A stretch of 64,000 bases of DNA from Candidatus Pullilachnospira intestinigallinarum. Lineage in GTDB: Bacteria > Bacillota > Clostridia > Lachnospirales > Lachnospiraceae. Shown piece after piece: positions 41,504 through 57,895 of this stretch (positions are counted from its first letter, which is position 1; the number at the start of each line of letters is the position of its first letter). The notes below the pieces were generated by a model, which worked only from the letters and a program-made list of their open reading frames with translations, ran no database searches and was not told where the DNA came from. Both the position numbers and the translations under genes were made by a program. Location: the NCBI GenBank assembly GCA_018711275.1, contig DVIN01000080.1, positions 23,168 through 87,167 of the forward strand, given 5' to 3'.

Positions 41504-41857
41504 TTATTTCAATTCCGAAGAATAATACGGAACCGTAATCCAGTCTCCATACTGCAGTTCTTCGTCTGTCAGATGATTGATGCGCATCACTTCATCCACA
41601 TAATCCCGGATATCCGCATATTCCTCTGTCCTGTATTCTGAGGCCAGTCCCCAGAGGGTATCATCCCGCTCCACGAACACGCTGGTGAAATACTTGTATC
41701 GTTCCGGTCCCTCACTGGTGTCCGCATGCACCTGAATGGCACTGAGCGCACTCACCAGAAGCCCGGTCAGTATGGCGGCTGCTCCGAAAACCGTCAGCCG
41801 TCTGCGAATCTTCTGCATCCTTCTGTTCTTTCTGTAAGCACGTCTTGTTTCCTTCAT
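41504..41857 (-). CDS. YneA-like membrane-anchored LysM protein (candidate SOS cell-division inhibitor)
   Basis: GGGGGA RBS before ATG 41857; basic N-terminus, one TM (LTVFGAAAILTGLLVSALSAI), LysM (DTLWGLASEY..INHL..LQYGDWITVP); LexA boxes upstream. Confidence 0.7.
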   Translation of the reverse strand: MKETRRAYRKNRRMQKIRRRLTVFGAAAILTGLLVSALSAIQVHADTSEGPERYKYFTSVFVERDDTLWGLASEYRTEEYADIRDYVDEVMRINHLTDEELQYGDWITVPYYSSELK

Positions 41858-41916
41858 GGTGATTCCCCCTTTTATCATACAATCAATAACCCGCCGCATC
41901 TGCTTTTCTTTTGATC

Positions 41917-41956
41917 CGAACATATATTCCGAATATTTGTTCCAAACATATGTTCT
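41917..41956. promoter_or_regulatory. three tandem LexA (Cheo-type) boxes in the yneA-like leader
   Basis: CGAACATATATTCC (41917-41930), CGAATATTTGTTCC (41930-41943), CAAACATATGTTCT (41943-41956); each one mismatch from GAAC-N4-GTTC, phased 13 nt apart. Confidence 0.6.
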
Positions 41957-41972
41957 TATTCCTTATGACGCT

Positions 41973-42001
41973 ATTATAATTCCCGAACACATGTTTGTCA
42001 A
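41973..42001 (-). promoter_or_regulatory. consensus sigma-A promoter overlapped by a fourth LexA box
   Basis: Minus strand TTGACA (42001-41996), 17 nt, TATAAT (41978-41973); box CGAACACATGTTTG at 41984-41997. Confidence 0.65.
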
Positions 42002-42741
42002 TCTGCTTTTTGAAATTTTTGCATCATCTCTCTCACCCGCTCCAGATCCTTCTCCGTATCCACCGAAAGGCTCTCCATATATTCCACAGGGATCAACCGC
42101 AGTTCTTTCCCGTAATCCAGAAACCGCAGCGTGTCGATCCCTTCGATTCTCTCCAGGCGGCCGGGCTTTGAGGCCGCGTAAAAATCCAGCATCTTCCGGT
42201 TGTAGCCGATGATGCCCACATGCTTGTAGTAGGTCACATCCAGGGAACAGAACGGATGGGGAATGGGACGCCGGGACATATAAAGGGCCCGGTAATCCTG
42301 ATCAAAGACTACTTTGATATTGGAATCATCCAGCACCTGCGCCGGATCCGTGACCGGTGTGATAATATTGATTCCGAATTCCCTGTCCAGTGGAATTTCT
42401 CCCCGGGGAATGGCGGCCTTCACCGCTTCACGGGAAATCAGAGGCTCATCTCCGTTCAGCTGGATATAGAAATCCGCCAGTATCTGGCGGGATGCCTCCC
42501 AGAGCCGGTTGGCTGCCGTGGCGTGATACGGTGAAGTCATCACTGCGGGAATTCCTTCCCGGCGGCACGCCATCAGAATCCGTTCATCATCCGTGGCCGC
42601 CCAGACCTGATCCAGACCGGCAATCTGTGAACATCTCTGATATACCCACCAGATCATGGGTTTTTTGCAGATTTCCATCAGCGGTTTTCCGGGCAGCCGC
42701 GAAGAGCCGTACCGGGCGGGTATGATTCCCGCAATTTTCAT
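41998..42741 (-). CDS. KdsB-type cytidylyltransferase (CMP-ulosonic acid / CMP-Kdo synthetase family)
   Basis: IIPARYGSSRLPGKPL..ICKKPMIWWV N-terminus is the KdsB signature; 247 aa. Confidence 0.8.
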   Translation of the reverse strand: MKIAGIIPARYGSSRLPGKPLMEICKKPMIWWVYQRCSQIAGLDQVWAATDDERILMACRREGIPAVMTSPYHATAANRLWEASRQILADFYIQLNGDEPLISREAVKAAIPRGEIPLDREFGINIITPVTDPAQVLDDSNIKVVFDQDYRALYMSRRPIPHPFCSLDVTYYKHVGIIGYNRKMLDFYAASKPGRLERIEGIDTLRFLDYGKELRLIPVEYMESLSVDTEKDLERVREMMQKFQKAD

Positions 42742-42780: not shown

Positions 42781-43587
42781 CTACTGCACCTGATAAAGCA
42801 GCCTCCGCTCTTCACCTCTGCTCTCATAGATCCGTTTTTCCCTGGGGGAAAACAGGAACCTGGGCTTTTCATACCGGGGAAATCCCTCCCGGATTCTCTC
42901 CTCCAGATGTTTCACCGCTTCCGGCGGATCATTGAGATCCAGTCCGGCCAGCACATCGGGACCGTAATCCCACCAGCAAAGCTCTTCCAGCTTTTCAATT
43001 ACCGGCTCCGGAAACCGTTTCTTTATGGGACGCGCGGGAACACCTCCCACCACCGTATAAGGTTCCACATTTCTGGTCACCACCGCTCCTGCTCCCACCA
43101 CAGCCCCGTCGCCGATGGAGACGCCTCGCAGGATTGTGGCGCGTCCGCCAATCCACACGTCATTTCCAATGACGATTCTGGTGCGGGCGGCAAATTCATG
43201 GGTTTTCTGATAACGAAGAATCTTTTCCAGCCAGTCCATATCCTCATACAGATGATGAAAGGACCGGTTCCATCCGCAGTCCATATTCTGAAACACCAGA
43301 TGGGTGCTGACGGATTCCACCGGATGCACCGCGCCCCCGGCGACCACCTCCGGACCGAACAGACCGAAACGGCCGATGGATTCTATAAACCGCATGCTGC
43401 AGTGCTGATTGAAAAACGAAAATGCCCCGATAACCCCTGCGTCCACCCGCACGCCCGAACAAAAACGCACCGGCGCCTCACAGACACATTCCCGGTGGGA
43501 AGCGTAACAGATCTCAGCGACTTCCCCTGTGATGGTAATTCCCTGTCCGCCTTCGGCGGGAAATCGAAAACCGGAATGTATTTTCAT
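42781..43587 (-). CDS. hexapeptide-repeat (LbH) acetyltransferase, XAT/Vat-like
   Basis: AGGAGG before ATG 43587; [48 protein letters not shown] tail. Confidence 0.8.
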
Positions 43588-43630
43588 GACCTGCCTCCTG
43601 TAAATTGATTGCCAAAACACCCGCTGCCGG

Positions 43631-44401
43631 TTACTGACAGGGAATCTGATACAGCAGTGTTTTTCCTTTTTCATCGATCTGCCATACAGAGCAGATTCCC
43701 TGCTGCTGACATACCAGAAATCCCGACTTTTCAAAAGGAACGGGAACCTCCGATGCGGCCGCCCTAGCAGCTTCCTCAAAGAAATCACCGGAGCCGGCAA
43801 GAGCGGCAAAATCCGTTCTGGCAAGCACTGCGCCGCCATAATCCCACCAGGAAAAGGATTTCTGATACCGATATCCGGTGATGTGCGCGGGATTTCCCTG
43901 AAGCAGCGCCCCTTCCGGCACCGATGTCTGGACAAATGCGCCGGGGGCAATCACCGCCCCGTCTCCTACTGTTACACCCTCCAGGATCACGGCTCCATCA
44001 CCGATCCAGACATCACTTCCGATCCGCACAGGCCTGGAGCCGGACAAGGGAACCGGATGTTCCACAGCAAACGCGTCGTCCCACCACCCCTGCCGGCTGC
44101 GGATCATGGCGCATACCGGAAATTCTCCGGTATTCCTGCCGGATACTGCTCCGATCCGGCAGGATTCTCCAATGACCGAAAACCTTCCGATGCTGCGGCA
44201 GCGGCGGATCCGGGTATCACTTCCCACCTGTGTGCCCATTCCCAGAAATTCCGTCTCCAGATGACAGCCTTCCCCCAGGGAAACCGGCGTCTCCAGAAAC
44301 ACTCTGGGACACCGGCGGGGATGGCCCAGCCAAAGGGTGTTCGCAGTCACCACTTTGCCCTTCCCGGTCAGGAGCGGGAAGGTTTCTCTGTCCACCCTCA
44401 T
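43631..44401 (-). CDS. hexapeptide-repeat (LbH) acetyltransferase, paralogue
   Basis: [36 protein letters not shown] tail; start overlaps upstream stop (ATGA). Confidence 0.75.
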
Positions 44402-45993
44402 GGGCGGGAAGACTCCTTTCCCTTCTCCTCCAACTGCCTGCGCAGTTCCTGTTCCATTTCAATATACTCTAGCAGCCGCCGTTCCGTGGCCGCCAGGATC
44501 CCCTCCAGCATCCGGATACGGATCTGATCGTCGCTCATCTCCGCGAAAGAAATCTCCGTGCCCGAGTAAGGCAGCTTTCTGGATTCCCTGATTTTTCTGC
44601 TCTGGCTCATAAGATGCGCCTCCTTACTGTAAAAATACATGGTGTCACAGCCCTCCTCGTCCCAGTATTCCTCCGACCGGCACCATGCTGCCGCCAGCCG
44701 CGTTTTCCGGATGGAAAGGGGCTGCATGGAGAGAAATTTTTCCCTGATCTCCTTCCCGGGCCGGTACATGCCATACTGCCCGTCCGTATTGAGAAACAGC
44801 ACCGCCCGGACATTGGCAGGCAGTTCCCAGGGATCCTGCCCGTTCCCGTCTCCGTCCCAGAAACAGATCACCTCCCCGGACAGTTCCTCCAGGTTCCGGC
44901 TGACGGAAAGATTCCCCGGAAGCTCCCGGTTCCACCGGGAAAGATTTTCAAAGGGCAGCGGATCCGTACCGGCCGTCCAGATGGAGGTAAATCCCAGCGC
45001 TGCGGCCGCCGCCATGGCCATATAATAAATGTGGATGAAATGGAAATTCCGCTCATAGGCGGCATTAGATTTCAGACAGCTGGAAAACTCCTGCCGGATC
45101 AGATTGATGCCGGTGGAGCTGATGGTACAGACCGTTTCCGGAAGCCGTTTAAAGGCCACAGGCAAAAGCTCCGCCGGAAAAATTTCTCTTAAAATCTCTG
45201 CCTCCGGAAACAGCCGGTGATAATACAGAATATCGTCCGGATGCGGCTTGATCAGCACCTTCCTGCCCTCCAGAAAATAGTCAAACAAGGTCTGATAGAT
45301 GAGGATCTGTTCCGGAAACGTCAGCTGTCCCAGATTGGCAAATTGCTGCGTTAGAAGCAGCACGCAATCCGGATCTCCCTCATATACCGGCACCCGGAAG
45401 AACTCCCGGATACTCTGCTTCCATGTATCCCTGAGCTGTCCAAAGGCCTCCATCACCGGGAAATCCACCGCCTTTTCGTCAGAAAATCCTTCCCTCTGCG
45501 ACCTGGCGTCACAGATTTTCTCCGTGATCACCGGATTGGTGTGATCGTACAGATGGTATTTTTCCACCGCCTTCTGCCGGTCAGGGGAACTTTTCCTGTG
45601 AATGTCCGACAGGATCCAGGGGCGGCTTAAGGCCCCGCTGCCGTCCTCAAACATGGCAAAGCAGATTCCGTCCCTGGCCCACTGCACCTGCAGCCAGGTA
45701 TGAATCCCCGCCGCGTAGATTTTGTCGTAATCCTCCGCCCGCCTTCCGGTGACGGAGCGGAATTCCTCCCGCACCTCTTTTACAATTTTATCCTCCTCTC
45801 CCCGGTAGCCGCCGTACCGGAACAGCAGCACCCGGTCAAAAAATCCCCGTTCTTTCGCTTCCCGGTACTGGGGCATCCGCTCCAGAATATAGTTTCCCAG
45901 CAGCAGATCCGCCTCCTCGTCGGCGTGAAAGGTCAGCCGGTGGACGATACATTCCAATATCTGATAAGATGACAATGCCTGATAAAGTATCAC
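44398..45993 (-). CDS. putative CMP-ulosonic-acid transferase (sialyltransferase/GT52-like motifs)
   Basis: GTG 45993 preceded by GGAGGAGGAG and overlapping upstream stop (GTGA); FEDGSG (45634-45651) and KPHP (45238-45249) resemble bacterial sialyltransferase D/E-D/E-G and HP motifs. Confidence 0.45.
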   Translation of the reverse strand: MILYQALSSYQILECIVHRLTFHADEEADLLLGNYILERMPQYREAKERGFFDRVLLFRYGGYRGEEDKIVKEVREEFRSVTGRRAEDYDKIYAAGIHTWLQVQWARDGICFAMFEDGSGALSRPWILSDIHRKSSPDRQKAVEKYHLYDHTNPVITEKICDARSQREGFSDEKAVDFPVMEAFGQLRDTWKQSIREFFRVPVYEGDPDCVLLLTQQFANLGQLTFPEQILIYQTLFDYFLEGRKVLIKPHPDDILYYHRLFPEAEILREIFPAELLPVAFKRLPETVCTISSTGINLIRQEFSSCLKSNAAYERNFHFIHIYYMAMAAAAALGFTSIWTAGTDPLPFENLSRWNRELPGNLSVSRNLEELSGEVICFWDGDGNGQDPWELPANVRAVLFLNTDGQYGMYRPGKEIREKFLSMQPLSIRKTRLAAAWCRSEEYWDEEGCDTMYFYSKEAHLMSQSRKIRESRKLPYSGTEISFAEMSDDQIRIRMLEGILAATERRLLEYIEMEQELRRQLEEKGKESSRP

Positions 45994-48671
45994 AGTTTCT
46001 CCTCCTCCCACAGCTTCGCTTTTTCCATCACCTGACGGACGGATTCCATTACCGCCCGGTCCTGGGTGGCAAACAGATCTCTCCCGAAAATATAGCCTCC
46101 GAAATATTTTCTCAGCCAGGACAGATGTCCGGAAAAATGAAGAAACGGCATATACGCGTCATGGCCGGAGATATCCAGCATATAGGGGAAATCCTGAAAC
46201 CATCCGGTATAATCCCTGACAAAATCCAGACATCCCCGGTGAATCTCCCGGTTATGCTCATAATTTTCCACCTCAGGAATATCATAGAGAATCCGCCCTT
46301 CCCGGTCGAACCCCAGGAAGGTGGGTGTGCAGGACTGGGTCAGAATTTCAAAAAAGAAAGAATTCAGATGACGATTCCCCGCCTGATGCAGATCATGCAG
46401 CTCCTTGTTGTCCAGACTGGAAAACAGATACGTTTCCACCTGCCGTTTCTGCATCATGGCGGCCATATAGGTGTCATTGACATTTCTTGTGGCCGCCAGC
46501 AGACAGCTGATCCGACAGTTCAGATGGTATACTTTCTCCACCAGATAGCGAACCTGCAGCACGTTATTTCCTGACCAGCCCACATCCACCACGGCAGCTC
46601 GCCTGCTGCCCGCCAGCATTCTGGAAAGATAATCCCGTATTGCCTCCTGGTCCGCCTGATAGCAGCCGCACAGCTCCTCCCAGTGATCCACCAGAAGAGA
46701 ATAGACCACCTTTTCATTTGCGGGCGTCAGATATTCCCGGTCGTGAAGCCGGTATTGGGGAAAATATTTTTTCAGCTCTCCGATTCCCACCCGGTCAAAC
46801 AGAGTTCCAATCCGGGATTTATAGAGGGCGTTGGCCTTGTGATGTACCAGCTGCAGCAGATAGGGATGACGGTTCTTGTCCACGGTGGTCTTTACCACCG
46901 GCACCCGGCTCCACAGAACATATTCTGTGGGAAAATCCGGATACATCTGTGTAAAGACTTTTCGGTACAAATCTCCTTCACGGGCCAGAAACAGAATCTT
47001 ATCCAGTCCATGCGCTCTGGCATACCGGTAAATCCACTGGCAGAAACCCATCACATAAAAGCCCGTATACACATACCCTACCTCATAGTACGGACTGAAA
47101 CGCTCCATCCCGGAATGGAGCCTGGCATTGATCACACCCCGGTAAGCGCTTCCCGCCAGATGCGACATTCCCAGGGCCCGATAGGGATTCCCGGCCTCAT
47201 TCACGTTCTGATACAGCCGGGCGGCCAGACCCTTTTTCCGTGCACTGTCATAATCCGAATGAGGATTGTCGCCCACATGGATAAGCTCCAGCCCGTCGTA
47301 CCGATCAGTCAGAATATCGTACAGGCCGCCGTTTCGCTTGGAGCAGTTGTAATCACAGGAGACAAGGACCTGATCCCACTGGTCATAACCACAGGAGGCC
47401 AGGAGCCTGCGCATCCATTCTTCGGGAAGATACATATCCGACACTGCCGCCAGCGTCTTATTCTGCCCCAGAAGCAGCCGGTAAACTGTCTGCATATAGG
47501 GATTGGGCCGGCAAAGGGACAACTCCGTCTCAAATTCCACCCGGGCGCCTTCCCCTGGATCGATTCCCGTTTCCCTGGCCACATATTCATAAATCTTAAG
47601 CAGCGTAACCTCTTTATTTCCCCGCTTCAGATAATTGTCATTTCTGGCCTGCTGCTCCGCGTTTTTCCTGATTTCGCAAAAATCCATGATATCCAGTCTC
47701 TCACCCACCAGCACAAACAGGTCGGAGGGCGCAGAGAAGGGACGCAGAACCAGCGTATCGAAAATATCAAAGGAAATCACCGGATAAGGCATCAGACTTT
47801 TGGCAAAATTCATGGGGGATATCCGGTTGGAAGCTTCTGACTCCGCACCCTTTTCATACAGCCGGCCTCCGGCGCCCGGCAGGGGAAGATGCGTTTTTAC
47901 GGGAGCAGTTTCCCCCAGATCATGGTATTTCCGGTTGTCGCAGGTGTATTTGACCCGGTAACGGTAAATGCCGGGAGCAGGCTGATCATCGGTAAAACAG
48001 GTTTTTGATGTCTGTACCAGAAAGCGAAATTCCCCGTCTTCTCCCGCCCGGTAGACATTATAGTGAAGCGCTTTCGCCGCCCCTTCCCAGAACAGGGATG
48101 CGCCTCCGGCGGGATCCGCCTCGGCCTGCAGACGGTGGGAATGTCTCTCTTTTCTGCTTTTGCCGGTTTTGTTCTGTTCCCGTTGTCCTCCACTGTCCGC
48201 ATAAGCCAGCCGGCGGGCCCAATAGAGATTTTCATCTGCCACGGTGGAGACGGAAAGGATTTCGGAAAAGTCGCTGTAAAAGGAGCCGTCCATGGAAACC
48301 TTAAATTTATAAAAGGTAATGGTCTCCGGCGGCAGGGAGGCCGTTTTATACCGGTTGCTCTCTGTCTTTGCCAGAAAACGGAAATGAACGCCGTCTTCCG
48401 AATGATAAAGATTGTAACAGACCGCGCCGAAAATCTTTTCCATCCGGATTGTGGCGCGTCCGTCTTTGATCCCCAGCAGCTGTATCCGGTGCAGGCGATT
48501 CTTCTGACTTTTGCGGTATTTCCAGGCGAGAAGAGCCAGCACCAGCCAGTGCCTGAGCCGGTGACTCTGATGCTGCGCGAGATGGCCGGTTACATATCGC
48601 TCATAGGCTTTACGGACCCGCTCATTTTTTCTGACGATTTTTTCATACAGACGTTCCTTTAATCCGCTCAT
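45990..48671 (-). CDS. 893-aa protein: two Fn3-like modules + HAD phosphatase-like domain + conserved unknown module (COG5610-like)
   Basis: GAGGTG RBS before ATG 48671; internal repeat YNLYHSEDGVHFRFLAKT / YNVYRAGEDGEFRFLVQT; HAD motifs ISFDIFDTL .. VSD .. SKRNG .. HVGDN; C-module ILFLAREG, VDVGWSG. Confidence 0.6.
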   Translation of the reverse strand: MSGLKERLYEKIVRKNERVRKAYERYVTGHLAQHQSHRLRHWLVLALLAWKYRKSQKNRLHRIQLLGIKDGRATIRMEKIFGAVCYNLYHSEDGVHFRFLAKTESNRYKTASLPPETITFYKFKVSMDGSFYSDFSEILSVSTVADENLYWARRLAYADSGGQREQNKTGKSRKERHSHRLQAEADPAGGASLFWEGAAKALHYNVYRAGEDGEFRFLVQTSKTCFTDDQPAPGIYRYRVKYTCDNRKYHDLGETAPVKTHLPLPGAGGRLYEKGAESEASNRISPMNFAKSLMPYPVISFDIFDTLVLRPFSAPSDLFVLVGERLDIMDFCEIRKNAEQQARNDNYLKRGNKEVTLLKIYEYVARETGIDPGEGARVEFETELSLCRPNPYMQTVYRLLLGQNKTLAAVSDMYLPEEWMRRLLASCGYDQWDQVLVSCDYNCSKRNGGLYDILTDRYDGLELIHVGDNPHSDYDSARKKGLAARLYQNVNEAGNPYRALGMSHLAGSAYRGVINARLHSGMERFSPYYEVGYVYTGFYVMGFCQWIYRYARAHGLDKILFLAREGDLYRKVFTQMYPDFPTEYVLWSRVPVVKTTVDKNRHPYLLQLVHHKANALYKSRIGTLFDRVGIGELKKYFPQYRLHDREYLTPANEKVVYSLLVDHWEELCGCYQADQEAIRDYLSRMLAGSRRAAVVDVGWSGNNVLQVRYLVEKVYHLNCRISCLLAATRNVNDTYMAAMMQKRQVETYLFSSLDNKELHDLHQAGNRHLNSFFFEILTQSCTPTFLGFDREGRILYDIPEVENYEHNREIHRGCLDFVRDYTGWFQDFPYMLDISGHDAYMPFLHFSGHLSWLRKYFGGYIFGRDLFATQDRAVMESVRQVMEKAKLWEEEKL

Positions 48672-48682: not shown

Positions 48683-49201
48683 TTACGCGCCCCACAGCCT
48701 GCGGGCGCAATCTTCCAGAATTCCCTTTGCCGAAAGCACCAGTTCCGCAAATTCCCGTACGGCGCCCTCTCCGCCCCGCGCTTTCAATACCAGGGAACAC
48801 CGGTTCCGGACGCCTGCGGCCGCATCGGAGGGACAGGCACTGACAGCTGCCAGGGACATGGCTGCCAGATCGTTGAAATCATCGCCAAGATAGGCGGTCT
48901 CCTGCCCGGAGAGGTTCTGTTCCCTCAGAAACTGTTCCAGAAAGGTCCGTTTATCTTTTACCCCCTGGAATACCTGGCTGATTCCCAGCTCCCTGGCGCG
49001 CAGAGCGACACAGGAACTTTCTCTTCCGGTGAGGATCACCGGGAGTACGCCGCCTTCCCGAAGAAGCAGAATTCCCGCTCCGTCGCGGATGCTGAATTTT
49101 TTCATTTCCGTTCCCCGGCTGTCCAGATACACGCCTCCGTCGGTCATGGTGCCGTCCACGTCTAAAACCAGACAGCGGATGGCGGAAAGTACCTCTCTCA
49201 T
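48683..49201 (-). CDS. KdsC-family HAD-IIIA phosphatase (ulosonate-phosphate phosphatase)
   Basis: LVLDVDGTMTDG, ILTGRES, YLGDDFNDL; 172 aa. Confidence 0.8.
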   Translation of the reverse strand: MREVLSAIRCLVLDVDGTMTDGGVYLDSRGTEMKKFSIRDGAGILLLREGGVLPVILTGRESSCVALRARELGISQVFQGVKDKRTFLEQFLREQNLSGQETAYLGDDFNDLAAMSLAAVSACPSDAAAGVRNRCSLVLKARGGEGAVREFAELVLSAKGILEDCARRLWGA

Positions 49202-50781
49202 CGTATCTCCTCCTCATAACGGGAGGGCGTCAGAAAACTCAGTTTCATCTGCTCCCGGATTTCACCCAGCCATCCGGCAATCTGATGATTGTCTCCGGAG
49301 GACGCTCCGTAAAATTCGCCGAAATATCCGGGCAGATAATTTTCCCCGCCCTCCTCATAACCGTCAAATCCTGCCAGAGCGGCCTCCTTCACTCCCAAAA
49401 GAACCAGAAGTCTAAGAAGCAGGATTCCGCAGTTGGCGCTGTAGGATTTCTCCCCGTAGGCCAGCCGGTCATAATTGATCACCAGATCTCCGGCAGCGTA
49501 CCTGGAGGAAACATTGGAGGTGAGAATCACGTTGCTGCGCTGCTTTCGGGAGGTTTTATATTCCTCATACCGACGGGCATTGCTGAAAAAGGCATAGCCG
49601 CCCTCCTGCTCATCAAAATAGAAATTGGCGGATACCGGAATGGCTCCTTCCCTGCGGATATAGCTGTGTACCTTTTTCCAGGAAGATTCCAGACTCTTTC
49701 CCGGCGCCAGAACCACCACCCGGCGGCCGCCGAACTCTTCCGCCAGCTGGGAAAGCGCTCCGTCATCTTCCACCTTCCGGTTCTCATATTTCCGATACAG
49801 CTTCTCCGCCGTATCTTCATCAAAAACAGCCTTCTTCTTTTCCGGGATCATCTTCAGAATCTGGTTCATATCTCTGCTGGTAAGCGTTCCCTTTTTCTGA
49901 AGATATTCCGCGTAATTCCGGTGGAGGTTGTGTTTCGCGGAAAGAAAATATTCTGTGGAATAGCCCCAGGATTCCTTCTGACGAATGGGAAGAATATGCT
50001 CCTGGATGGCATCCAGCACCTGATTAATTTCATACTTTCTCCCGTAATTTTTGTTCATGTAATCCATCAGAAGTTCCATGCACAGATTGCCCGGAACCCG
50101 CCCCATGCCGTTTAGAGAAGCATCCAGCACGCATTTTCGCCCCGCCTCGCGCATCTTTAGAAAATCCTGGGCCAGAGAGAACGACAACGCCAGGTTTTCA
50201 TGAAGATGAAGCCCCAGAACCGTTTTTTTGTCCAGATTGTTCTCACAGAGGGAATAAATCCTTGTCAGTTCCTTTCTGGTCATGGAACCGAAAGTATCCA
50301 CAATGGAAAATCCATACGGAGACAGCTGGCGCACTTTTTTCAGGAGTTTCAAAAGAGCGGCGTCCTTATATCCCATAATATTGATGGGATTCACAAACAG
50401 ACGGTACCCCTTTTCCATCACTTTTCTGCCGAATTCCAGCCCTTCATCGATATCGTAGTCGTGGAAGGTCACCCGGATGGCGTCCAACGTGCCGTCGTTG
50501 TCCTCCAGTTGGCTGATATCATACTGGTTATGCAGAGCCATGGCTACGAAACGGGACTTTTTCCGGTTATCCGGAAGAATCCGGGATAATTCCTTTACAT
50601 TGCCGAATAACGTCCGGTCCGGATCATAGACGCCGTTTCTTAAAAATCCCACTTCAATCAGATCACAGCCTGCGTCTACCAGCCGTGTCAGCAGATTTTG
50701 AATGGTCCGCCGGCCAAACCTCCAGTCGTTGATGTAACCGCCGTCCCGGAGCGTACAGTCCAGAAGTCTGATTTTCTCCAT
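49198..50781 (-). CDS. fusion: HMGL-like (DRE-TIM) aldolase domain + CstII/Maf (MptE-like) domain
   Basis: AGGAGG before ATG 50781; DCTLRDGGY, GLHLHENLALS (HxH), NGMGRVPGN for the N-domain; VVVLAPGKSL .. SANFYFDEQ .. LLGVKEAALAGFDGY for the C-domain. Confidence 0.65.
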   Translation of the reverse strand: MEKIRLLDCTLRDGGYINDWRFGRRTIQNLLTRLVDAGCDLIEVGFLRNGVYDPDRTLFGNVKELSRILPDNRKKSRFVAMALHNQYDISQLEDNDGTLDAIRVTFHDYDIDEGLEFGRKVMEKGYRLFVNPINIMGYKDAALLKLLKKVRQLSPYGFSIVDTFGSMTRKELTRIYSLCENNLDKKTVLGLHLHENLALSFSLAQDFLKMREAGRKCVLDASLNGMGRVPGNLCMELLMDYMNKNYGRKYEINQVLDAIQEHILPIRQKESWGYSTEYFLSAKHNLHRNYAEYLQKKGTLTSRDMNQILKMIPEKKKAVFDEDTAEKLYRKYENRKVEDDGALSQLAEEFGGRRVVVLAPGKSLESSWKKVHSYIRREGAIPVSANFYFDEQEGGYAFFSNARRYEEYKTSRKQRSNVILTSNVSSRYAAGDLVINYDRLAYGEKSYSANCGILLLRLLVLLGVKEAALAGFDGYEEGGENYLPGYFGEFYGASSGDNHQIAGWLGEIREQMKLSFLTPSRYEEEIR

Positions 50782-50909: not shown

Positions 50910-52907
50910 TCATTCCACAAACATACTGGTTTCCCAGGAAAAATACTGCTCCAGTTTTTTCCGGTATCCGGCATCCGACAGTACTGCCCGGATGGGCGCG
51001 TAAGCATCCCTCCCGCTGATTTCCTGTCCCTTAAGACCGCCGAAATGGCGCTTCCAGTCGGAGGCGAAGTCCCAGATTCCCTGCTGGATTCTCCGGATTT
51101 TTTCTGACTGCGGCTCCGGATTGCCGAAACGAAACTGCACGTTGCCTTCCGCATCCCTCGCGAATCCCAGAAAAGTGGGAGACGGCGAGGCCGCCAGAAG
51201 CTCCATCACGAGATTATCTCCCCTGACAGGATCATGGAATTCCCACAGCCGGCGGTTAAAAACGGGAGAGAAAAGGTACGTTTCCACCTGCCCTGTGAAC
51301 AGCTCCGGATAAAGAGCGGCAAAATCTCCGTTTTTCCGTGGCGCCGACGCCGCGAGAAACGTATGGATCGTTGTATTCGGGCAGACTTTCCCCGCCACAT
51401 GGGCCAGCGCCCAGGGACCGGTTCCCAGCCACCCGATGTCCACTGCGGCAGCCCGGCTGCATCCGGCAAGCATACCGGCCAGATATTCCTCTGCCGCTTC
51501 CATTTCCTGACGGTATATCTCCAACACCAGCGGGAAATGGCTCTGCAGCCAGACTTCATACGCCTCCGCCGTCTGAGCGGTAAGCGGCGTTTTTTCATCG
51601 AGCCCCGTATCGCGGCTGGCGCCCGCCAGCAGACCGGACAGATCCATGGAGGCAAAGCAGTCTGCCGCCGTATATCCCCGATTGATTTTATCCCGCAGAA
51701 ACCGCCGGAAAAATTCCTGTCGGCGTACATCCGCCGAAAGCTTCAGGGCCACCCGCCGGGACCAGTATACATAGCGGGTGTCACTGTCCGGATACAGCAG
51801 TTGATAGACTTTGCGGACAATTTCCCCGTCTCTGGCAAGAAACAGCAGACGGTCGATTCTTTTCTCCTGAACCTTTCTGTGAAGAAACCGGCAAAATCCC
51901 ACCGCCCAGAGACCGCCGTACAGATAGCCGAATTCATACAGCGGGGAATAACGCCGGCCGCGTCCGTGCATCCTCTGGCTGGCCAGCCCCCGGTACATGC
52001 TTCCCACCACCGGCGACATCCGGCGGATCCGGAAAGGATAACCCATAAGACGGGCAGAAGGAATCAGAAGAGACGCTACCCCTCTCTTTCGGGCTTTTTC
52101 CCCATCCGACACCGCATCGTCTCCCACATGAATCCAGCGGCAGCCGGAACCGAACCAGAGACGGATCACATCAAAAAGTGTTCCCTGACCTTTGGAAGCG
52201 TTCCGGTCACAGGATACAAAACATCTGTCAAATACTCCCAGGCCCGCCTCCAAAAGAAGGCGGCGGATCCGTTCCTCTCCCAGATACATATCACTGGCGA
52301 TCACCACCTGTTTTCCGGCCCTTCGAAGAGCCGCAAGCACCGGAAGAAACCGGGGATTGGCATAACAGAACTGCCGCTCCGTCTCCCATTCCGCCAGCAT
52401 TCCCTCCCCCCTGTCAATTCCGGTCTGCGCGGACAGAACCTCCCAGATTTCCTCCAGCGTCACCTCCCCGCATCCGCCTGCCTGCCGGTTTCGTCTGCGC
52501 GCCTCCTCCTCCGCCCGGATACGCAGCGCGCGAAAATCCGGGCAGGAAAGCTTCAGGCCCACAAAATAGAAAAGATCTGCCGGTTCTTCCACCGGGCGCA
52601 GAAGAAGGGTATCAAACACATCAAAGGAAATCACGTCAAATTCCATCAGCCGTCGCATCATGGACCGGGTTGAAGGAACCTGAAACCGCCCGGACTCCCG
52701 CAGCAAAAGCCGGGCCGGATTATTTTCTCTGCTCCAGCCCGCTGTTTTTGAAAATCCCGGCAGCCGATTCGCCAGAAGACAGAAACAGCCTTTTACAAGC
52801 CCCGGCCATCCGGGATTTTTTCGCCGAAAATCCTGCCACCAGACGGCGGCTTCCCACTCCTGCCGGGTCAGTACCCCAAACAAAGCCTTCTTTAACCACT
52901 GAAACAT
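50910..52907 (-). CDS. 665-aa HAD phosphatase-like domain + conserved unknown module (COG5610-like), paralogue 2
   Basis: ISFDVFDTL .. ASD .. SKGQG .. HVGDD; C-module LLFLARDG, VDIGWLG, VETYLFS, SPTFLGF shared with the 893-aa protein. Confidence 0.65.
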   Translation of the reverse strand: MFQWLKKALFGVLTRQEWEAAVWWQDFRRKNPGWPGLVKGCFCLLANRLPGFSKTAGWSRENNPARLLLRESGRFQVPSTRSMMRRLMEFDVISFDVFDTLLLRPVEEPADLFYFVGLKLSCPDFRALRIRAEEEARRRNRQAGGCGEVTLEEIWEVLSAQTGIDRGEGMLAEWETERQFCYANPRFLPVLAALRRAGKQVVIASDMYLGEERIRRLLLEAGLGVFDRCFVSCDRNASKGQGTLFDVIRLWFGSGCRWIHVGDDAVSDGEKARKRGVASLLIPSARLMGYPFRIRRMSPVVGSMYRGLASQRMHGRGRRYSPLYEFGYLYGGLWAVGFCRFLHRKVQEKRIDRLLFLARDGEIVRKVYQLLYPDSDTRYVYWSRRVALKLSADVRRQEFFRRFLRDKINRGYTAADCFASMDLSGLLAGASRDTGLDEKTPLTAQTAEAYEVWLQSHFPLVLEIYRQEMEAAEEYLAGMLAGCSRAAAVDIGWLGTGPWALAHVAGKVCPNTTIHTFLAASAPRKNGDFAALYPELFTGQVETYLFSPVFNRRLWEFHDPVRGDNLVMELLAASPSPTFLGFARDAEGNVQFRFGNPEPQSEKIRRIQQGIWDFASDWKRHFGGLKGQEISGRDAYAPIRAVLSDAGYRKKLEQYFSWETSMFVE

Positions 52908-52941: not shown

Positions 52942-53724
52942 TTAGAGTACCGGCGTCTGTTTTTGGCTCCTTCCGTATGCCAGATAAGCGTCGCAGACCT
53001 GACGGGGATCGCCGTCCATCAAAAGTTTTCCCTTCTCCAGCCACAGTACGCGGCTGCAGGTGGACAGGACGGCGGATACCGAATGGGATACCAGCAGCAC
53101 CGCGGTGCCGCCCCGGATAATCTGACGGATCCGCTCCTCGCTTTTCTGCCGGAAAAAGGCGTCGCCCACACTGAGCACCTCGTCCAGAATCAGCACTCCC
53201 GGCAGGGTGCGGGCGGTGGCAATGGCAAATCCCAGACGGGACACCATGCCGGAAGAAAAATTTTTGATTTTCTGATCCATAAATCCCTCCAGCTGGGCAA
53301 AGCTTACGATTTCCCGATATTTGGCGGCGATTTCCTTCTTCCCATAACCCAGAAGCGCCGCGTTCAGATACACATTTTCCCTGGCCGTCAGCTCCCGGTC
53401 AAAGCCGCACCCCAGGGTCAGCAGATGCATCCGGCCCGGGTCCGCCACCACTCGTCCGCCGGTGGGCGGCATGGCGCCGGATATGATTTTCAGCAGGGTG
53501 CTCTTCCCGGAACCGTTGGTTCCCACGATCCCCACCACCTGTCCGGGAAATACGTCAAAGGAAACCCCGGACAGGGCCGCAAACCGCCGCACCGGATGGT
53601 TCCCGGTAAACCGCCGGATCAGATATTCCTTCAGACTGTCCGCCCTTTCCACGGGCATTTGAAATTCCATGGTGACATTTCTTGCAGAAATCACCGGGCG
53701 GTCCTTTTCCACGCCATTTGCCAT
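52942..53724 (-). CDS. ABC transporter ATP-binding protein, Wzt/TagH type (no C-terminal carbohydrate-binding domain)
   Basis: GGAGGTGG before ATG 53724; GTNGSGKST, FSSGMVSRLGFA, LILDEVLSVGD. Confidence 0.9.
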   Translation of the reverse strand: MANGVEKDRPVISARNVTMEFQMPVERADSLKEYLIRRFTGNHPVRRFAALSGVSFDVFPGQVVGIVGTNGSGKSTLLKIISGAMPPTGGRVVADPGRMHLLTLGCGFDRELTARENVYLNAALLGYGKKEIAAKYREIVSFAQLEGFMDQKIKNFSSGMVSRLGFAIATARTLPGVLILDEVLSVGDAFFRQKSEERIRQIIRGGTAVLLVSHSVSAVLSTCSRVLWLEKGKLLMDGDPRQVCDAYLAYGRSQKQTPVL

Positions 53725-53737
53725 ATGCCTCCACCTC

Positions 53738-54490
53738 CTACAGCCGCTGGATGATTCTGCTCTGATTTCTGAAAAAACAGAGACTTCCCGCCGCAAAAAT
53801 CACGGCCGCCCACAACGCCATCCGCACCCACAGTCCCGCCGATGGCACCTGGCCGTACATCATGCAGTCCCTGGCCGCCGCGATATAACAGTAAACGGGA
53901 TTTTCCCCCACAATCGCCTGCATGGCCGGGGGCAGCAGCGTTACCGGATAAAAAAGCGCCGATAGATACATCCACAGGGTCAGCACCACCCCATACAAGT
54001 GGCGGACGTCGCCGAAATAGGCATAGAGGATGGAAAGGAAAAATCCCACGCCCATGGAAAACAGTCCCAGAAGCGCCACAATGGGAAGAAACAGCACCAT
54101 CCGCCAGGTGGGCCGGATGGCAAAAACCGCCAGGATTACCCCGTAGGCGGCCAGAGAATAGATAAGATTCACCAGCGCGGCCAATACCCGGGATACGGGA
54201 AACACCGCCCGTGGAAAGCTGGTCTGTAAAAGCAACGTCCGGTTGTCTGCCAGTGCGCTCATAGCCGCGTTGGTGGAGCCCGTAAAGAAATTCCACAGAA
54301 TCAGGCCGGTCACGTAATACACCGGATAATTTTCAATGGATTTCCGGAACATGGTGGAAAACACCAGCGACAGCACCGCCATGGACAGCAGCGGATTCAG
54401 CACGCTCCAGAGAATTCCCAGCCGGGACCGGCTGTATTTTCGTTTCAATTCCCGAAGAATCAGCTGCCCGGTCACAAAAGAATATTTCAT
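53738..54490 (-). CDS. ABC-2-type polysaccharide/teichoic-acid export permease (Wzm/TagG type)
   Basis: RELKRKYSRSRLGILWSVLNPLL N-terminus, 6 TM; directly upstream of the ATPase. Confidence 0.85.
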   Translation of the reverse strand: MKYSFVTGQLILRELKRKYSRSRLGILWSVLNPLLSMAVLSLVFSTMFRKSIENYPVYYVTGLILWNFFTGSTNAAMSALADNRTLLLQTSFPRAVFPVSRVLAALVNLIYSLAAYGVILAVFAIRPTWRMVLFLPIVALLGLFSMGVGFFLSILYAYFGDVRHLYGVVLTLWMYLSALFYPVTLLPPAMQAIVGENPVYCYIAAARDCMMYGQVPSAGLWVRMALWAAVIFAAGSLCFFRNQSRIIQRL

Positions 54491-55791
54491 GACGATTCCC
54501 TCTTTTTGCCTGTAATGATCCGGAAAACGGATTTTTTGAGATATAAGGCATACTTATACAGCCGGATTTCGGCCAGTTGGCGCCGGACGTGTTTTCCCCG
54601 CCGGACCACACTGCCCTCCATCCAGGCGCTCTCCCCCGGCGGACGTCCCGCAAGCTGCGCCGCCGCCAGAACCTTTGTCAAAAGATGGCCGCCGGAAAGC
54701 AGAAACGGATCACCGGAGGGGACAGGAGCCAGTTCCCTGCCGGGCTCCTCCAGCACGTCATCGGTGAATGTTAAGCTGCCGAAGGCATGGGCCTGTCGGA
54801 GAGTGGGTGTTCCCATAAAAGGCGCAAGGAGGCGTTCCAGCTTTCCCGCCGGGCAAAGTTCCCAGGCCCGGATGGACAGCGGAAGCCTCTCCGCCTTCTG
54901 GCGGGCCAGGGAGACCACCGCATCCTCCACCACATGGAGCGCCGGAAAATTTTCCCCGAGAGCCGGACGGTACCGGGGAACAAAACATCCCTGCTTCGTC
55001 CTCTGATACCCTTCCGTCATTCCCCGGGGCGCGCCGAATACACACTCAAACAGGCTGTTGGAGAAGTATGCTTTCCTCCTTATCTTTCCCCGAACCGGAA
55101 AATAATACGCATGGTATAAATTTTCCTGTACGCCCTTTGGCAGCTGATACAGTCCGAAATAAAAACCGTTGATTTCCCTGTGAAATCCTTCCTTCTCCAG
55201 CAGGACCTTCAACGTCTGCTGCAGGCTGCCGGTCCATCCGCTGTCCGCCACCGCCCAGCGGATGTCGTCAAAAAGGCCCTCCTGCCGCAGATAACCGCAG
55301 ACGCCGGGAAGCGCCTTTTGGGCGTGGGATTCCACCATCTGCCAGAATGGCGGACAGTGAAAAAAAAGCGGCTTCAGCCGCCGGATTTCCTGCCGGGTGA
55401 GAATTTTATCCAGAGGGACAGATACCCCGGCTGCCTGCGCCGCCCCAAGCGCTTCCTGGCGGTCAAGACCTGCCCGGGCCAGAATTTTCCCCAGGGTCAC
55501 ATCGATGCCGTCCAGAAAAATCTGATCCAGGCTTTCCTTTCCCAGCAGGGCGAAAGAAGGCAGCCGCAGCGCGTACCGGGAACATTCCAGATAGCGGCAT
55601 TCGATGCGGGGGTGGCGGTTTTCGGCCAGGATACATCCCGCCCGGTACATCATCCACCCGTCCCTGGCCAGAAAATAAATTCGCCGGATCCCCAGGCGCT
55701 CTGCCTCAGACAAGATCCATTTGACGTACTCCACCATCACAGGAGCCAGTATTTTACCGGCGGTATCCCTGACTGTGTCCATCGGTTCCAT
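54487..55791 (-). CDS. 434-aa protein consisting only of the conserved unknown module (paralogue 3, no HAD domain)
   Basis: RIYFLARDG and VADSGWTG motifs collinear with the C-modules of the 893- and 665-aa proteins; stop overlaps permease start (ATGA). Confidence 0.55.
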   Translation of the reverse strand: MEPMDTVRDTAGKILAPVMVEYVKWILSEAERLGIRRIYFLARDGWMMYRAGCILAENRHPRIECRYLECSRYALRLPSFALLGKESLDQIFLDGIDVTLGKILARAGLDRQEALGAAQAAGVSVPLDKILTRQEIRRLKPLFFHCPPFWQMVESHAQKALPGVCGYLRQEGLFDDIRWAVADSGWTGSLQQTLKVLLEKEGFHREINGFYFGLYQLPKGVQENLYHAYYFPVRGKIRRKAYFSNSLFECVFGAPRGMTEGYQRTKQGCFVPRYRPALGENFPALHVVEDAVVSLARQKAERLPLSIRAWELCPAGKLERLLAPFMGTPTLRQAHAFGSLTFTDDVLEEPGRELAPVPSGDPFLLSGGHLLTKVLAAAQLAGRPPGESAWMEGSVVRRGKHVRRQLAEIRLYKYALYLKKSVFRIITGKKRESS

Positions 55792-56608
55792 GATTTTTCC
55801 GCTCCATTTCCCTTTTTATCCGGTAGAGCAGGCCGGAGGGAACCAGCGCCGCCGCCAGCGGACGGAGAATCTGCAGCCGCGTCCTCCACCCCGTAAGTCC
55901 CAGCATGGCAAATCCTTTTTTCCGCAGTCTCATCTCGTCCATCCGGTAACGCAGCTTCCGCTTTTTGAAGGAGGCCCGCTCCTGCCGGTAATAAAACAGT
56001 TCTTTCTGAAGATTATACCCATAACAGTCCGATCCATGCAGCCGCATGAAAAATTCGTAATCCTCACAGCGCAGAGTACGGCGTGATTCACAGTAGCCGC
56101 CGAACTGTTCAAAAACACTTTTCCGGAACATCACCGAGGGATGAATATACGGAGAATGAGGGAGAAAATCTTCTTTCTTTGGCCTTTTTGGCATTTTCCG
56201 ATGACCGCGGATCCTGCCGCCGTCCAGAATTCCCGCACAGCATCCCACAAAACCGTAGGCCGGATGCGTCTCAAGAAACCGCAGCTGTTTTTCCAGCCGC
56301 TCCGGCAGGGAAATATCGTCGTCATCCATCCGGGCGATATACGCTCCCCGGGCCAGTCGGACGCAGGTATTGAGCCCTGCGGCCAATCCCCGGTTTTGTT
56401 CCTTCCGGATCAGCCGGATCCGCGGATCCTGCCGGGCAATTTTCTGAAGCTCGCGGTATGTCCTCTGCCCGGAGCCGTCATCCAGAATCAGAAACTCAAA
56501 ATCCCGGAAGGTCTGGCTCAGAATGGAATCCACCGCCAGACGCAGATTTTTAAAACTGGCCGGTTGATACACACTCATAATCACACTGATTTTCACGGAT
56601 TTTCTCAA
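55754..56608 (-). CDS. family 2 glycosyltransferase
   Basis: GGGAGGTG + TTG 56608; ISVIMSVYQP..SILSQTFRDFEFLILDDGS, ARMDDDD. Confidence 0.9.
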   Translation of the reverse strand: MRKSVKISVIMSVYQPASFKNLRLAVDSILSQTFRDFEFLILDDGSGQRTYRELQKIARQDPRIRLIRKEQNRGLAAGLNTCVRLARGAYIARMDDDDISLPERLEKQLRFLETHPAYGFVGCCAGILDGGRIRGHRKMPKRPKKEDFLPHSPYIHPSVMFRKSVFEQFGGYCESRRTLRCEDYEFFMRLHGSDCYGYNLQKELFYYRQERASFKKRKLRYRMDEMRLRKKGFAMLGLTGWRTRLQILRPLAAALVPSGLLYRIKREMERKNHGTDGHSQGYRR

Positions 56609-57776
56609 GTTTTTGCACCTCCCGGTTCAGTATCTGCGGAAAGGTGGTTTCGTATACCCCGCACATGATCCGGGCGGTATTCCGGCTGGAGAAACGGGGA
56701 ATATCCCGAAAAGCACGCGCGCCCAACCGGTTCCGGAGCCCGGCGTCTTCTGCCAGCAGACGGATGGCATGGGCGAACTCCGCTACATCCTCCCCGGCGC
56801 ATAAAAGTCCGTTTTCTCCGTGGCGCAGATATTCCCTGGTTCCCCGGTTGTCCGCCCCGATCACTGCCCGGCGGCAGGCCATGGCCTCCAGCGGAGCCAT
56901 CCCCAGTCCCTCCCGGATGGAGGGGAAAAGAAAAATATCAATTCCCTGCAGAAGCACTTCCAGATCCTTCCGATATCCCAGAAAATGCACCCGCCCGGCA
57001 AGTCCGAGACGTTCCGTCATCTCTTTGAGCGCCTTTCGGTACGGCCCTTCCCCGCAGATAAAATACTGAAAATCCAGATCCTTTACCATGGCAAGGGCCG
57101 CAAGCACCGTCTGGTAATTCTTGTCCTGATCCAGACGGGCCGCCGTCAGGAATCCCAGCTGTCCCTTCTCAAGTCCCAGCCGCCTCCTGGCTTCTTTGCG
57201 AAGCCAGGGACGGAAGGCATACCGCTCCAGATCCAGCCCCACTCCCGGAATTTTCACCACACTTCCGCCCCTTTTCAGCCGGAAGCGGCCGGCGACCCGG
57301 GCGTCCTCCTCATTGATGGTCACCAGCACATCCGTAAACCGCGCCAGAAAACGCTCCGCCTGATAATACAGAAGCCAGTTCTTCGCGGGCGCTCCCTGGT
57401 AAAAATGAAATCCATGGGCGGTATAAATCACCTTCACCCGCCTTTTTGCCAGCCGTCCGGCCAACCGGCCCAGCAGCGCCCCCACCGGCGTATGACAGTG
57501 TACCACATCGATCTCCTTCTCATCGATCAGCCGCACCAGCATCTTCAGCGCCTTCCGGTTTTCCCTGAACCGCCAGGGGGAACGGCAGATGGGAAGCGGA
57601 TGGGTATGGATGCCCTTCTTTTCAAAAAAATTTTCTCCGATGGAAAAATCCGGCGCGTCAAAATTGGAAGCAAAATGGATTTCTGCTCCCATCCGTGTAA
57701 GAATCCGGATATTCTCCTGCTCAAACTGCCATAAAAACTCGCTGACCGTCGCCACAATCAAAATTCGGAAACTCAT
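56550..57776 (-). CDS. family 4 (GT-B) glycosyltransferase, first gene of operon
   Basis: AGGGAGGAAG before ATG 57776; EGLGMAPLEAMACRRAVIG..ENG (E-x7-E). Confidence 0.9.
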   Translation of the reverse strand: MSFRILIVATVSEFLWQFEQENIRILTRMGAEIHFASNFDAPDFSIGENFFEKKGIHTHPLPICRSPWRFRENRKALKMLVRLIDEKEIDVVHCHTPVGALLGRLAGRLAKRRVKVIYTAHGFHFYQGAPAKNWLLYYQAERFLARFTDVLVTINEEDARVAGRFRLKRGGSVVKIPGVGLDLERYAFRPWLRKEARRRLGLEKGQLGFLTAARLDQDKNYQTVLAALAMVKDLDFQYFICGEGPYRKALKEMTERLGLAGRVHFLGYRKDLEVLLQGIDIFLFPSIREGLGMAPLEAMACRRAVIGADNRGTREYLRHGENGLLCAGEDVAEFAHAIRLLAEDAGLRNRLGARAFRDIPRFSSRNTARIMCGVYETTFPQILNREVQKLEKIRENQCDYECVSTGQF

Positions 57777-57895
57777 GAACCTTCCTCCCTGTATCTGCCC
57801 CCAACCCCTGGCGGCATCCTGCTGACTCTTTGCTGCAGCTTGAAGTCTATCATGTTTTTTTCGTGACTTCCTTATGAATTCAATGGAAAAGAAGT

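Follow-up and report, generated by a model that had tools for sequence, protein, structure and literature searches.

In a 64,000-nucleotide stretch of DNA from Candidatus Pullilachnospira intestinigallinarum, a member of the Lachnospiraceae (GenBank assembly GCA_018711275.1, contig DVIN01000080.1, positions 23,168 to 87,167 of the forward strand; hereafter the window), one densely packed glycopolymer operon runs along the minus strand from about 57962 to 41998. We analysed three of its genes, which encode a 527-amino acid (aa) protein with an aldolase-like N-terminal domain, a phosphatase and a cytidylyltransferase, as a candidate cassette for making a cytidine monophosphate (CMP)-activated sugar acid. 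Their features are as follows.

49198-50781, minus strand: open reading frame (ORF) for the 527-aa protein, a DRE-TIM (HMGL-like) aldolase joined to an MptE-like/GT42-like domain (PF00682)
49882-50781, minus strand: N-terminal TIM-barrel aldolase domain of that protein with a helical extension (residues ~1-300)
49201-49728, minus strand: MptE-like/GT42 (CstII, Maf)-like Rossmann-type domain of the same protein (residues ~352-527)
48683-49201, minus strand: KdsC/YrbI-family HAD phosphatase, 172 aa (TIGR01670)
41998-42741, minus strand: KdsB-family CMP-ulosonate synthetase, 247 aa, the final gene of the operon (CTP_transf_3)

A first-pass annotation of this DNA had reported that the aldolase and phosphatase genes are translationally coupled, and the ATGA overlap is indeed present at 49198-49201, where the aldolase stop codon meets the phosphatase start codon. 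A Shine-Dalgarno-like AGGAGG lies 8 nucleotides (nt) ahead of the aldolase ATG. The same annotation had placed a KdsC-type phosphatase and a KdsB-type cytidylyltransferase in the operon, and both assignments were borne out by subfamily models. The phosphatase passed the KdsC/YrbI model TIGR01670 (130.9 bits against a cut-off of 106.95), with near-equal scores below both equivalog cut-offs: 136.9 against 208 for KdsC (NF007019) and 136.3 against 180 for the KDN-9-phosphate (KDN-9-P) phosphatase. Its best matches in the PDB were the YrbI-family protein 3mn1 (6e-36), the KDN-9-P phosphatase BT1713 (6e-31) and KdsC (3e-30). Arg60 of the phosphatase, within the stretch TGRE, aligned with Glu56 of BT1713, and an arginine likewise occupies this position in the YrbI/KdsC-family protein 3mn1; glutamate versus arginine here is regarded as a specificity marker of KDN-9-P phosphatases.

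The cytidylyltransferase scored 135 bits with CTP_transf_3 and 227 bits with the KdsB subfamily model PRK05450.1-5, which is above that model's cut-off (193), with scores below the cut-offs of PRK13368 (240.5 against 255) and of the KdsB equivalog TIGR00466 (137.4 against 155.2). All 13 of its 13 sequence matches in the PDB were synthetases of CMP-Kdo (Kdo, 3-deoxy-manno-octulosonate), and none was NeuA. The best of them was 1GQ9 (2e-46), which was deposited as 3-deoxy-manno-octulosonate cytidylyltransferase and is presumably the Escherichia coli capsule enzyme KpsU. Because the enzyme matched only CMP-Kdo synthetases among solved structures, and given the KdsC affinity of the phosphatase, sequence similarity suggests a Kdo-like, non-amino 3-deoxy-ulosonic acid as the product. 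Naming the exact sugar on this basis was rejected, since chain length and stereochemistry are not derivable from KdsB and KdsC similarity.

To our knowledge, de novo synthesis of Kdo and of sialic, legionaminic and pseudaminic acids begins, in every established route, with a phosphoenolpyruvate (PEP)-dependent synthase of the KdsA or NeuB family. The earlier observation that neither synthase is encoded in the operon could be extended to the whole 64-kb window. Pfam and NCBIfam scans of most window ORFs of at least 150 aa on coding strands gave neither KdsA nor NeuB, and tblastn across the window, for which the queries were PDB-verified E. coli KdsA and KdsD and the NeuB of a related locus, L005, gave no homologue of any of the three, the best E value being 0.16.

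To place the three genes in a wider context, we scanned one genome per GTDB species with two peptide patterns only, which yielded 291 relatives, and kept 80 loci. Cultured carriers of the cassette include Eisenbergiella tayi DSM 26961 and Clostridium leptum DSM 753. Within ±10 kb of the aldolase gene, KdsA and KdsD were found in none of the loci (0/80 each) and NeuB in one (1/80). By contrast, a KdsC-like gene lay within ±10 kb in 74 of the 80 loci, and in 66 of those 74 it was directly downstream of the aldolase gene. A total of 66 of the 80 loci have at least 3 kb of sequence on both flanks; among these fully flanked loci, 64 carried CTP_transf_3, 63 carried the KdsC-like gene and 61 carried both. 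Recurrence of the aldolase, the KdsC-like phosphatase and CTP_transf_3 together in 61 of 66 loci indicates that their association exceeds chance.

Neighbour clustering, performed without bias towards particular families, and Pfam annotation revealed no gene for precursor supply (an isomerase, a kinase or similar) near the cassette and returned generic glycan genes only: ABC exporter, GT4, GT8, DegT, Epimerase_2, GFO oxidoreductase, Asn-synthase-like, Bac_transf and YfhO. The lack of a precursor-supply gene nearby fits a substrate drawn from central metabolism. The cassette sits within biosynthetic glycan loci, not within loci for sugar uptake or catabolism.

At locus L005, from a rumen or gut metagenome and inspected in a separate look-up, a NeuB lies a few kb from the aldolase; this NeuB and its own fusion of CTP_transf_3 with a HAD phosphatase (5506-7587) lie immediately upstream of the aldolase cassette, in which the aldolase retains a separate cytidylyltransferase and phosphatase. 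Since NeuB comes with partner enzymes of its own, the NeuB and aldolase modules are independent, and this one glycan locus may make two different CMP-ulosonic acids.

These data bear on an alternative in which the ulosonate phosphate comes from a KdsA or NeuB-family synthase whose gene lies elsewhere in the genome, and the DRE-TIM protein makes or trims some other 2-oxo acid, or acts in salvage or cleavage like a sialate or Kdo lyase. For the source genome, the absence of KdsA and NeuB applies to the 64-kb window, and there are precedents for both halves of this alternative: kpsU and kpsF are present in E. coli capsule loci, which depend on housekeeping kdsA and kdsC, and pyruvate aldolases acting on ulosonic acids, such as NanA and Kdo aldolase, are classically catabolic. 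However, Lachnospiraceae have a single membrane and, as far as we know, normally lack both lipopolysaccharide (LPS) and kdsA; the aldolase, phosphatase and cytidylyltransferase genes travel together, with the phosphatase translationally coupled; the nearby NeuB at L005 is served by its own fusion enzyme; and the surrounding loci are biosynthetic. We therefore consider a synthase encoded elsewhere to be unlikely.

We then examined the 527-aa protein's N-terminal domain. The three motifs listed in the first-pass annotation were all found, DCTLRDG at residue 8 (extending to DCTLRDGGY), HLHEN at residue 192 and GMGRVPGN at residue 225. The protein matched the HMGL-like family PF00682 with 54.8 bits against a cut-off of 29, its AlphaFold2 model had a predicted local distance difference test (pLDDT) score of 87, and more than 4,200 full-length homologues of ~525 aa were retrieved. 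In an alignment of 34 homologues, R12, D13, E43, H192 and H194 were invariant. The PF00682 score, these invariant residues and Foldseek matches across the superfamily place the domain in the DRE-TIM metallolyase superfamily, whose members are TIM barrels marked by an x-R-D motif near the N terminus, a strand-2 glutamate and an HxH metal site. R12 is the enolate-stabilising arginine, and the metal ligands and the superfamily glutamate are also kept; with all of these invariant, the site is predicted to be able to bind and activate a 2-oxo acid.

A PDB search with the 34-homologue profile returned 3dxi first (1e-33), followed by pyruvate aldolases of the DmpG/BphI/HsaF/AmnG type, which are 4-hydroxy-2-oxovalerate aldolases (2e-13 to 3e-5), and last by acyl-CoA condensing enzymes, with isopropylmalate synthase at 2e-3 and others weaker. 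Foldseek with the AlphaFold2 model gave the same ranking, with a TM-score of 0.81 for 3dxi and of ~0.75 for the DmpG/BphI type. The nearest characterised relatives are therefore the DmpG/BphI-type pyruvate aldolases, not the acyl-CoA condensing enzymes.

This ranking also leaves very little credence for Claisen-type condensation or lyase chemistry with an acyl-CoA in this domain, as in the synthases of isopropylmalate, citramalate and homocitrate or in HMG-CoA lyase, which would place a branched or non-sugar hydroxy acid on the polymer. The superfamily does hold many acyl-CoA enzymes, which appear here as weaker matches, and the catalytic histidine of the aldolase branch is missing from the 527-aa protein. 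Yet the aldolase branch is closer, both in the profile search (hydroxy-oxovalerate aldolase at 2e-13, isopropylmalate synthase at 2e-3) and in NCBIfam scores (61.5 against 25.5 bits). In addition, the CTP_transf_3 enzyme of this operon matches CMP-Kdo synthetases only in the PDB, the CTP_transf_3 enzymes that we know of activate 2-keto-3-deoxy sugar acids only, and a KdsC-type phosphatase would have no role in such a pathway.

The N-terminal domain resembles DmpG, BphI and HsaF, which are class II pyruvate aldolases, in fold, metal ligands and enolate-stabilising arginine, and probably also in a catalytic tyrosine, as Y278 is probably the counterpart of the BphI catalytic tyrosine (matched by eye from a GY...Y..S motif). 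It nevertheless differs from them in having an invariant Tyr16 where DmpG and BphI have their catalytic histidine (the alignment with 8ih7 pairs RDGGY with RDGMH), in the additional MptE-like domain and in its location in glycan-biosynthesis rather than aromatic-degradation loci. Scores were far from the aldolase equivalog cut-offs in NCBIfam (61.5 bits against 229 for PRK08195 and 52.5 against 286 for TIGR03217), and no partner of the acylating acetaldehyde dehydrogenase (DmpF) type was found in the operon or in the Pfam-annotated neighbourhoods of relatives. The tyrosine in place of histidine, the low equivalog scores and the missing dehydrogenase partner rule out the domain being a DmpG/BphI orthologue.

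The best structural match, 3DXI, is BVU_2661 of Bacteroides vulgatus, a structural-genomics entry deposited as a "putative aldolase", for which we found no published function; we take it and the aldolase family to correspond to CDD cd07944 (DRE_TIM_HOA_like), of unknown function. BVU_2661 shares an RDGGY...W.F signature with the N-terminal domain, and its relatives share the two-domain architecture and a CTP_transf_3 neighbour; it differs in its low identity (~24%) and in the lack of an adjacent KdsC-like phosphatase at the Bacteroidota loci that we examined. In two of these three loci, CTP_transf_3 is a neighbour of the aldolase gene. The Bacteroidota counterpart of the C-terminal domain is either fused to the aldolase or the product of the next gene. 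In Bacteroides ovatus (L092, 8001-11330), the aldolase (282 aa) and an MptE-like domain (226 aa) are encoded by separate overlapping genes, the latter product matching the C-terminal domain with an hhalign probability of 95%; a short CTP_transf_3 protein (187 aa) and a PfkB sugar kinase follow, a GHMP kinase lies upstream, and there is no KdsC-like phosphatase. Such a layout may point to a version of the pathway that is fed by a kinase.

The first-pass annotation had described the 527-aa protein as starting with a DRE-TIM/HMGL-like domain, which the PF00682 match supports but which leaves out the last ~175 residues, a second domain. When modelled alone, this region formed a separate alpha/beta domain (pLDDT 89). 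It carries the motifs APGKS (residue 359), SANF (384), FFSN (398), TSN (421) and GFDGY (471), the last followed by NY (481). The family PF01973 (MptE-like/DUF115) matched 5 of 15 family members, with a best E value of 4.8e-5, and gave no match to the C-terminal domain of the window itself; a Bacteroidota relative (P0184) carries PF01973 together with PF00682 in precomputed annotation. Foldseek matches among the viral models of BFVD were MptE-like proteins and GT29 sialyltransferases, with TM-scores of ~0.6. Comparison by hhalign with CstII, whose sequence was verified as 1RO7, gave a weak alignment (E 0.0086) that was colinear through the donor-site motifs, pairing APGxSL with GNGPSL, SANF with RCNQF, FFSN with FYNP, TSN with CSN and LAGFDGY with LSGIDFY; the hhalign alignment stops at LSGIDFY (CstII residue 159), and the pairing of ..NY with ..SY was extended by eye.

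Searches of the PDB with the sequence of the domain gave nothing significant, and searches with its fold gave only weak matches to SteA (E 1e-4, TM-scores 0.40-0.46), with CstII and Maf outside the top 50. Our assignment of the domain as MptE/GT42-like therefore draws on the PF01973 matches in relatives, the BFVD fold matches and the weak colinear alignment. This subtype of the domain occurs almost solely as a fusion to the aldolase, and a search with the C-terminal domain alone returned 326 clusters at 50% identity (E <= 1e-30). The donor site of PF01973 domains is GT42-like, and CMP-Kdo can serve Maf enzymes as a substrate (bioRxiv 10.1101/2020.06.03.131540). Some family members share PF01973 with Maf, and the domain aligns weakly with the donor-site motifs of CstII; it is much shorter than Maf, has no flagellin-binding domains and is fused to an aldolase. 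In the alignment extended by eye beyond CstII residue 159, the column of the catalytic His188 of CstII was variable in the family, which counts against a transferase role. On this evidence, the domain most likely binds a nucleotide, with a CMP-sugar as the likeliest candidate, and it may serve as a priming transferase or as a feedback sensor; a kinase role is less likely.

In the kinase version of the model, the C-terminal domain would be a kinase or pyrophosphokinase that phosphorylates a free aldose for the aldolase, the KdsC-like enzyme later removing the phosphate, by analogy with the animal N-acetylmannosamine kinase, Neu5Ac-9-P synthase and phosphatase series. Several observations point this way: SteA, whose fold we take to be thiamine-pyrophosphokinase-like, is the best PDB fold match; the Pfam family is named after MptE; consecutive steps are often catalysed by fused domains; and PfkB and GHMP kinase genes lie near the B. 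ovatus homologue. However, the magnesium-binding acidic residues of thiamine pyrophosphokinases, whose motifs are DGG and GDxDS, are not kept, the corresponding stretches reading APGxS and GFDGY; the order of motifs follows the CMP-sugar-binding elements of CstII; and the SteA matches are weak. We regard this version as quite improbable.

Taking these results together, we think it rather likely that the aldolase acts with the KdsC-family phosphatase and the KdsB-family cytidylyltransferase as a self-contained cassette for a CMP-activated 3-deoxy-2-ulosonic acid that works without a PEP-dependent synthase. The first-pass annotation had proposed a pyruvate-dependent DRE-TIM aldolase in place of the synthase. 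The shared context in 80 species, the lack of KdsA and KdsD and near-lack of NeuB beside the aldolase, the intact metal and enolate site, the separateness of NeuB at L005 and the CTP_transf_3 link in Bacteroidota all favour this proposal; its activity, substrate and product, and with them each chemical step, the phosphorylated intermediate and the identity of the sugar, we infer from the identities of the domains, the conserved catalytic residues, the structure of the operon and the context observed across species.

In the pathway that we propose, the N-terminal domain would bind pyruvate on a divalent metal held by D13, H192 and H194, with R12 stabilising the pyruvate enolate. The enolate would add to the aldehyde of a phosphorylated aldose, such as arabinose-5-phosphate, ribose-5-phosphate, erythrose-4-phosphate or glyceraldehyde-3-phosphate, giving a 3-deoxy-2-ulosonate phosphate, which is a 4-hydroxy-2-oxo acid. 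The invariant residues R103, R174, R228 and R288 of the aldolase are candidates for a phosphate-binding pocket. The KdsC-like phosphatase would then strip the terminal phosphate, pulling the reversible aldol reaction forward, and the KdsB-like enzyme would form the CMP-sugar. GT-B transferases with a sialyltransferase HP motif would attach the sugar to an O-acetylated cell-wall glycopolymer for export by the ABC transporter; the candidate for this step is a 537-aa polysialyltransferase-like protein here and a 455-aa TagF-like protein in most other species, both described below. The fused MptE/GT42-like domain would most likely bind the CMP-sugar, possibly as a second (priming) transferase or as a feedback sensor.

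A phosphorylated intermediate, also part of the earlier proposal, is plausible in Lachnospiraceae, where the phosphatase gene is nearly always adjacent, and is less well matched by the three Bacteroidota relatives. More tentatively, we envisage a PEP-independent, class II pyruvate-aldolase route in gut Lachnospiraceae, with a variant in Bacteroidota, in which the sugar is perhaps not Kdo but a C6-C8 acid built on glyceraldehyde-3-phosphate, erythrose-4-phosphate or ribose-5-phosphate, and the fused GT42/Maf-like domain primes the polymer or senses the CMP-sugar; in this extended form, the model is possible rather than probable.

Besides the window-wide scope of the KdsA and NeuB searches in the source genome and the variable His188 column, several findings weigh against the proposed pathway. 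The replacement of the catalytic histidine by Tyr16 means that the chemistry may differ from that of DmpG and BphI, and the equivalog scores of the aldolase are correspondingly distant. The 80 loci are relatives with 48-92% identity, mostly from metagenome-assembled genomes of Lachnospiraceae, and are not independent samples. Among the three Bacteroidota loci examined, the third has the aldolase without a visible CTP_transf_3, an arrangement that would also suit a synthase encoded elsewhere, and none (0/3) has an adjacent KdsC-like gene. Finally, full-text literature searching turned up no publication that deals with this aldolase family or with a cassette of aldolase, KdsB and KdsC.

The remaining genes of the operon were assigned as follows.

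56550-57962, minus strand: GT4 glycosyltransferase, upstream gene of the operon (Pfam)
55754-56608, minus strand: GT2 glycosyltransferase, upstream gene of the operon (Pfam)
within 54487-57962, between the GT2 gene and the ABC-2 permease gene, minus strand: 434-aa protein, unassigned
53738-54490, minus strand: ABC-2 type polysaccharide/teichoic-acid exporter permease (PF01061)
52942-53796, minus strand: ABC-2 type exporter ATPase (PF00005)
50910-52907, minus strand: 665-aa HAD-IA-like protein, directly upstream of the aldolase gene
45990-48671, minus strand: ~893-aa protein with a HAD-IA-like domain (likely start ATG 48671)
44398-46011, minus strand: 537-aa polysialyltransferase-like protein (PF07388)
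43631-44401, minus strand: first hexapeptide-repeat acyltransferase, 256 aa, a probable polymer O-acetyltransferase (Hexapep, Vat/WbbJ-type matches)
42781-43587, minus strand: second hexapeptide-repeat acyltransferase (likely true start ATG 43587, preceded by AGGAGG)

Two of these genes have listed ORFs that are longer than the likely coding sequences. For the second acyltransferase, the listed 389-aa ORF (42781-43950) is over-extended and overlaps the preceding gene by 320 nt; for the ~893-aa protein, the listed ORF is 936 aa, and the likelier start is ATG 48671, 12 nt after the phosphatase stop.

The 537-aa protein matched PF07388 over part of the model (28.7 bits against a cut-off of 23.3). 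Its D/E-D/E-G motif (FEDGSG, residue 121) and HP motif (KPHPDD, residue 255) were invariant or nearly so in alignment A4; both motifs have been defined for bacterial sialyltransferases (PMC2169525). With PF07388 and both motifs, the protein has the features of GT38-type bacterial polysialyltransferases and is a candidate CMP-ulosonate transferase or polymerase. It occurs in the 14 loci nearest to the window, in place of a ~455-aa protein whose gene immediately precedes that of the cytidylyltransferase in 56 of the 80 loci (for example L001, 7895-9259, and L052, 7909-9294; alignment A3). The ~455-aa protein is highly conserved and carries a YRPHPG motif, and 9 of 20 members gave weak TagF-like (PF04464) matches; it belongs to no Pfam family, and no sequence relative of either protein was found in the PDB. 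On these motifs, the ~455-aa protein is a candidate for a new CMP-ulosonate transferase family, and the two proteins are likely to be the CMP-sugar transferases of their respective loci. We rejected the notion that they are the same transferase, as, apart from an xPHPx stretch common to both, BLASTP and hhalign detected no significant similarity.

The products of 45990-48671 and 50910-52907 are paralogous, with 38% identity over 585 aa. Their genes flank the aldolase-phosphatase pair, and in each protein an N-terminal HAD-like segment carries DxDxT, whereas the long C-terminal region has no Pfam family. The 665-aa type co-occurs with the polysialyltransferase-like gene in ~15 of the 80 loci. 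Both may be polymer-modifying or polymerase components. The 434-aa protein was considered as a further paralogue of these two, for which BLAST gave no support.

Just upstream of the operon, an ORF at 58224-59594 (minus strand) fuses a PNP_UDP_1 nucleoside phosphorylase domain to a GNAT acetyltransferase domain, an unusual architecture. On the other side of the operon, cumulative GC skew reaches its maximum near 38 kb, where gene orientation switches from plus to minus (window positions 36000-42000), and a tyrosine recombinase gene (Phage_integrase; 39872-41041, minus strand) lies at this switch. The region from 36000 to 42000 resembles either a replication terminus that carries an Xer-type recombinase or a scar left by integration at the edge of the glycan operon. 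A 661-aa protein encoded at 34387-36372 (plus strand) combines 14 choline-binding repeats with an M23 peptidase domain at its C terminus; this suggests that the wall polymer bears phosphocholine or a similar ligand.

The proposed route can be compared with two known pathways. It resembles the CMP-Kdo pathway (KdsD, KdsA, KdsC and KdsB; KpsF and KpsU) in its homologous last two steps and in the predicted product class, a 3-deoxy-2-ulosonic acid. By contrast, the cassette has neither KdsA nor KdsD, a non-homologous DRE-TIM enzyme, expected to use pyruvate instead of PEP, occupies the slot for carbon-carbon bond formation, and the host is a Gram-positive member of the Lachnospiraceae without LPS. 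With the NeuB-type routes (KDN-9-P synthase, BT1713 and CMP-Kdn synthetase of Bacteroides thetaiotaomicron; NANS, NANP and CMAS of animals), it would share condensation to an ulosonate phosphate, a HAD C0 phosphatase and CMP activation, and the window phosphatase is as similar to BT1713 as to KdsC. It differs from these routes in having no NeuB homologue, in Arg60 at the position of BT1713 Glu56 and in a cytidylyltransferase that is KdsB-like rather than NeuA-like. The logic of the pathway is thus known; what would be new, if the proposal is right, is that a non-homologous class II aldolase stands in for the synthase and that this aldolase is obligatorily paired with a GT42/Maf-like domain. 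The aldolase family is not mentioned in the SugarBase preprint.

Because genome mining relies on KdsA and NeuB as markers, an entry through a pyruvate aldolase would be invisible to such screens. The aldolase family is large, with more than 4,200 close homologues and relatives in 291 species-representative genomes. If confirmed, the cassette would represent a third, non-homologous solution to ulosonic-acid synthesis, provide a new biocatalyst for the synthesis of keto-deoxy sugars and give a function to the structural-genomics orphan 3DXI. Its recurrence in at least 80 species indicates that this gene set probably marks an undescribed way to make acidic keto-sugars. Abundant and dominant gut commensals would then bear a new and unsuspected acidic, possibly sialic-acid-like, sugar on their surfaces, which would be relevant to immune recognition by the host.

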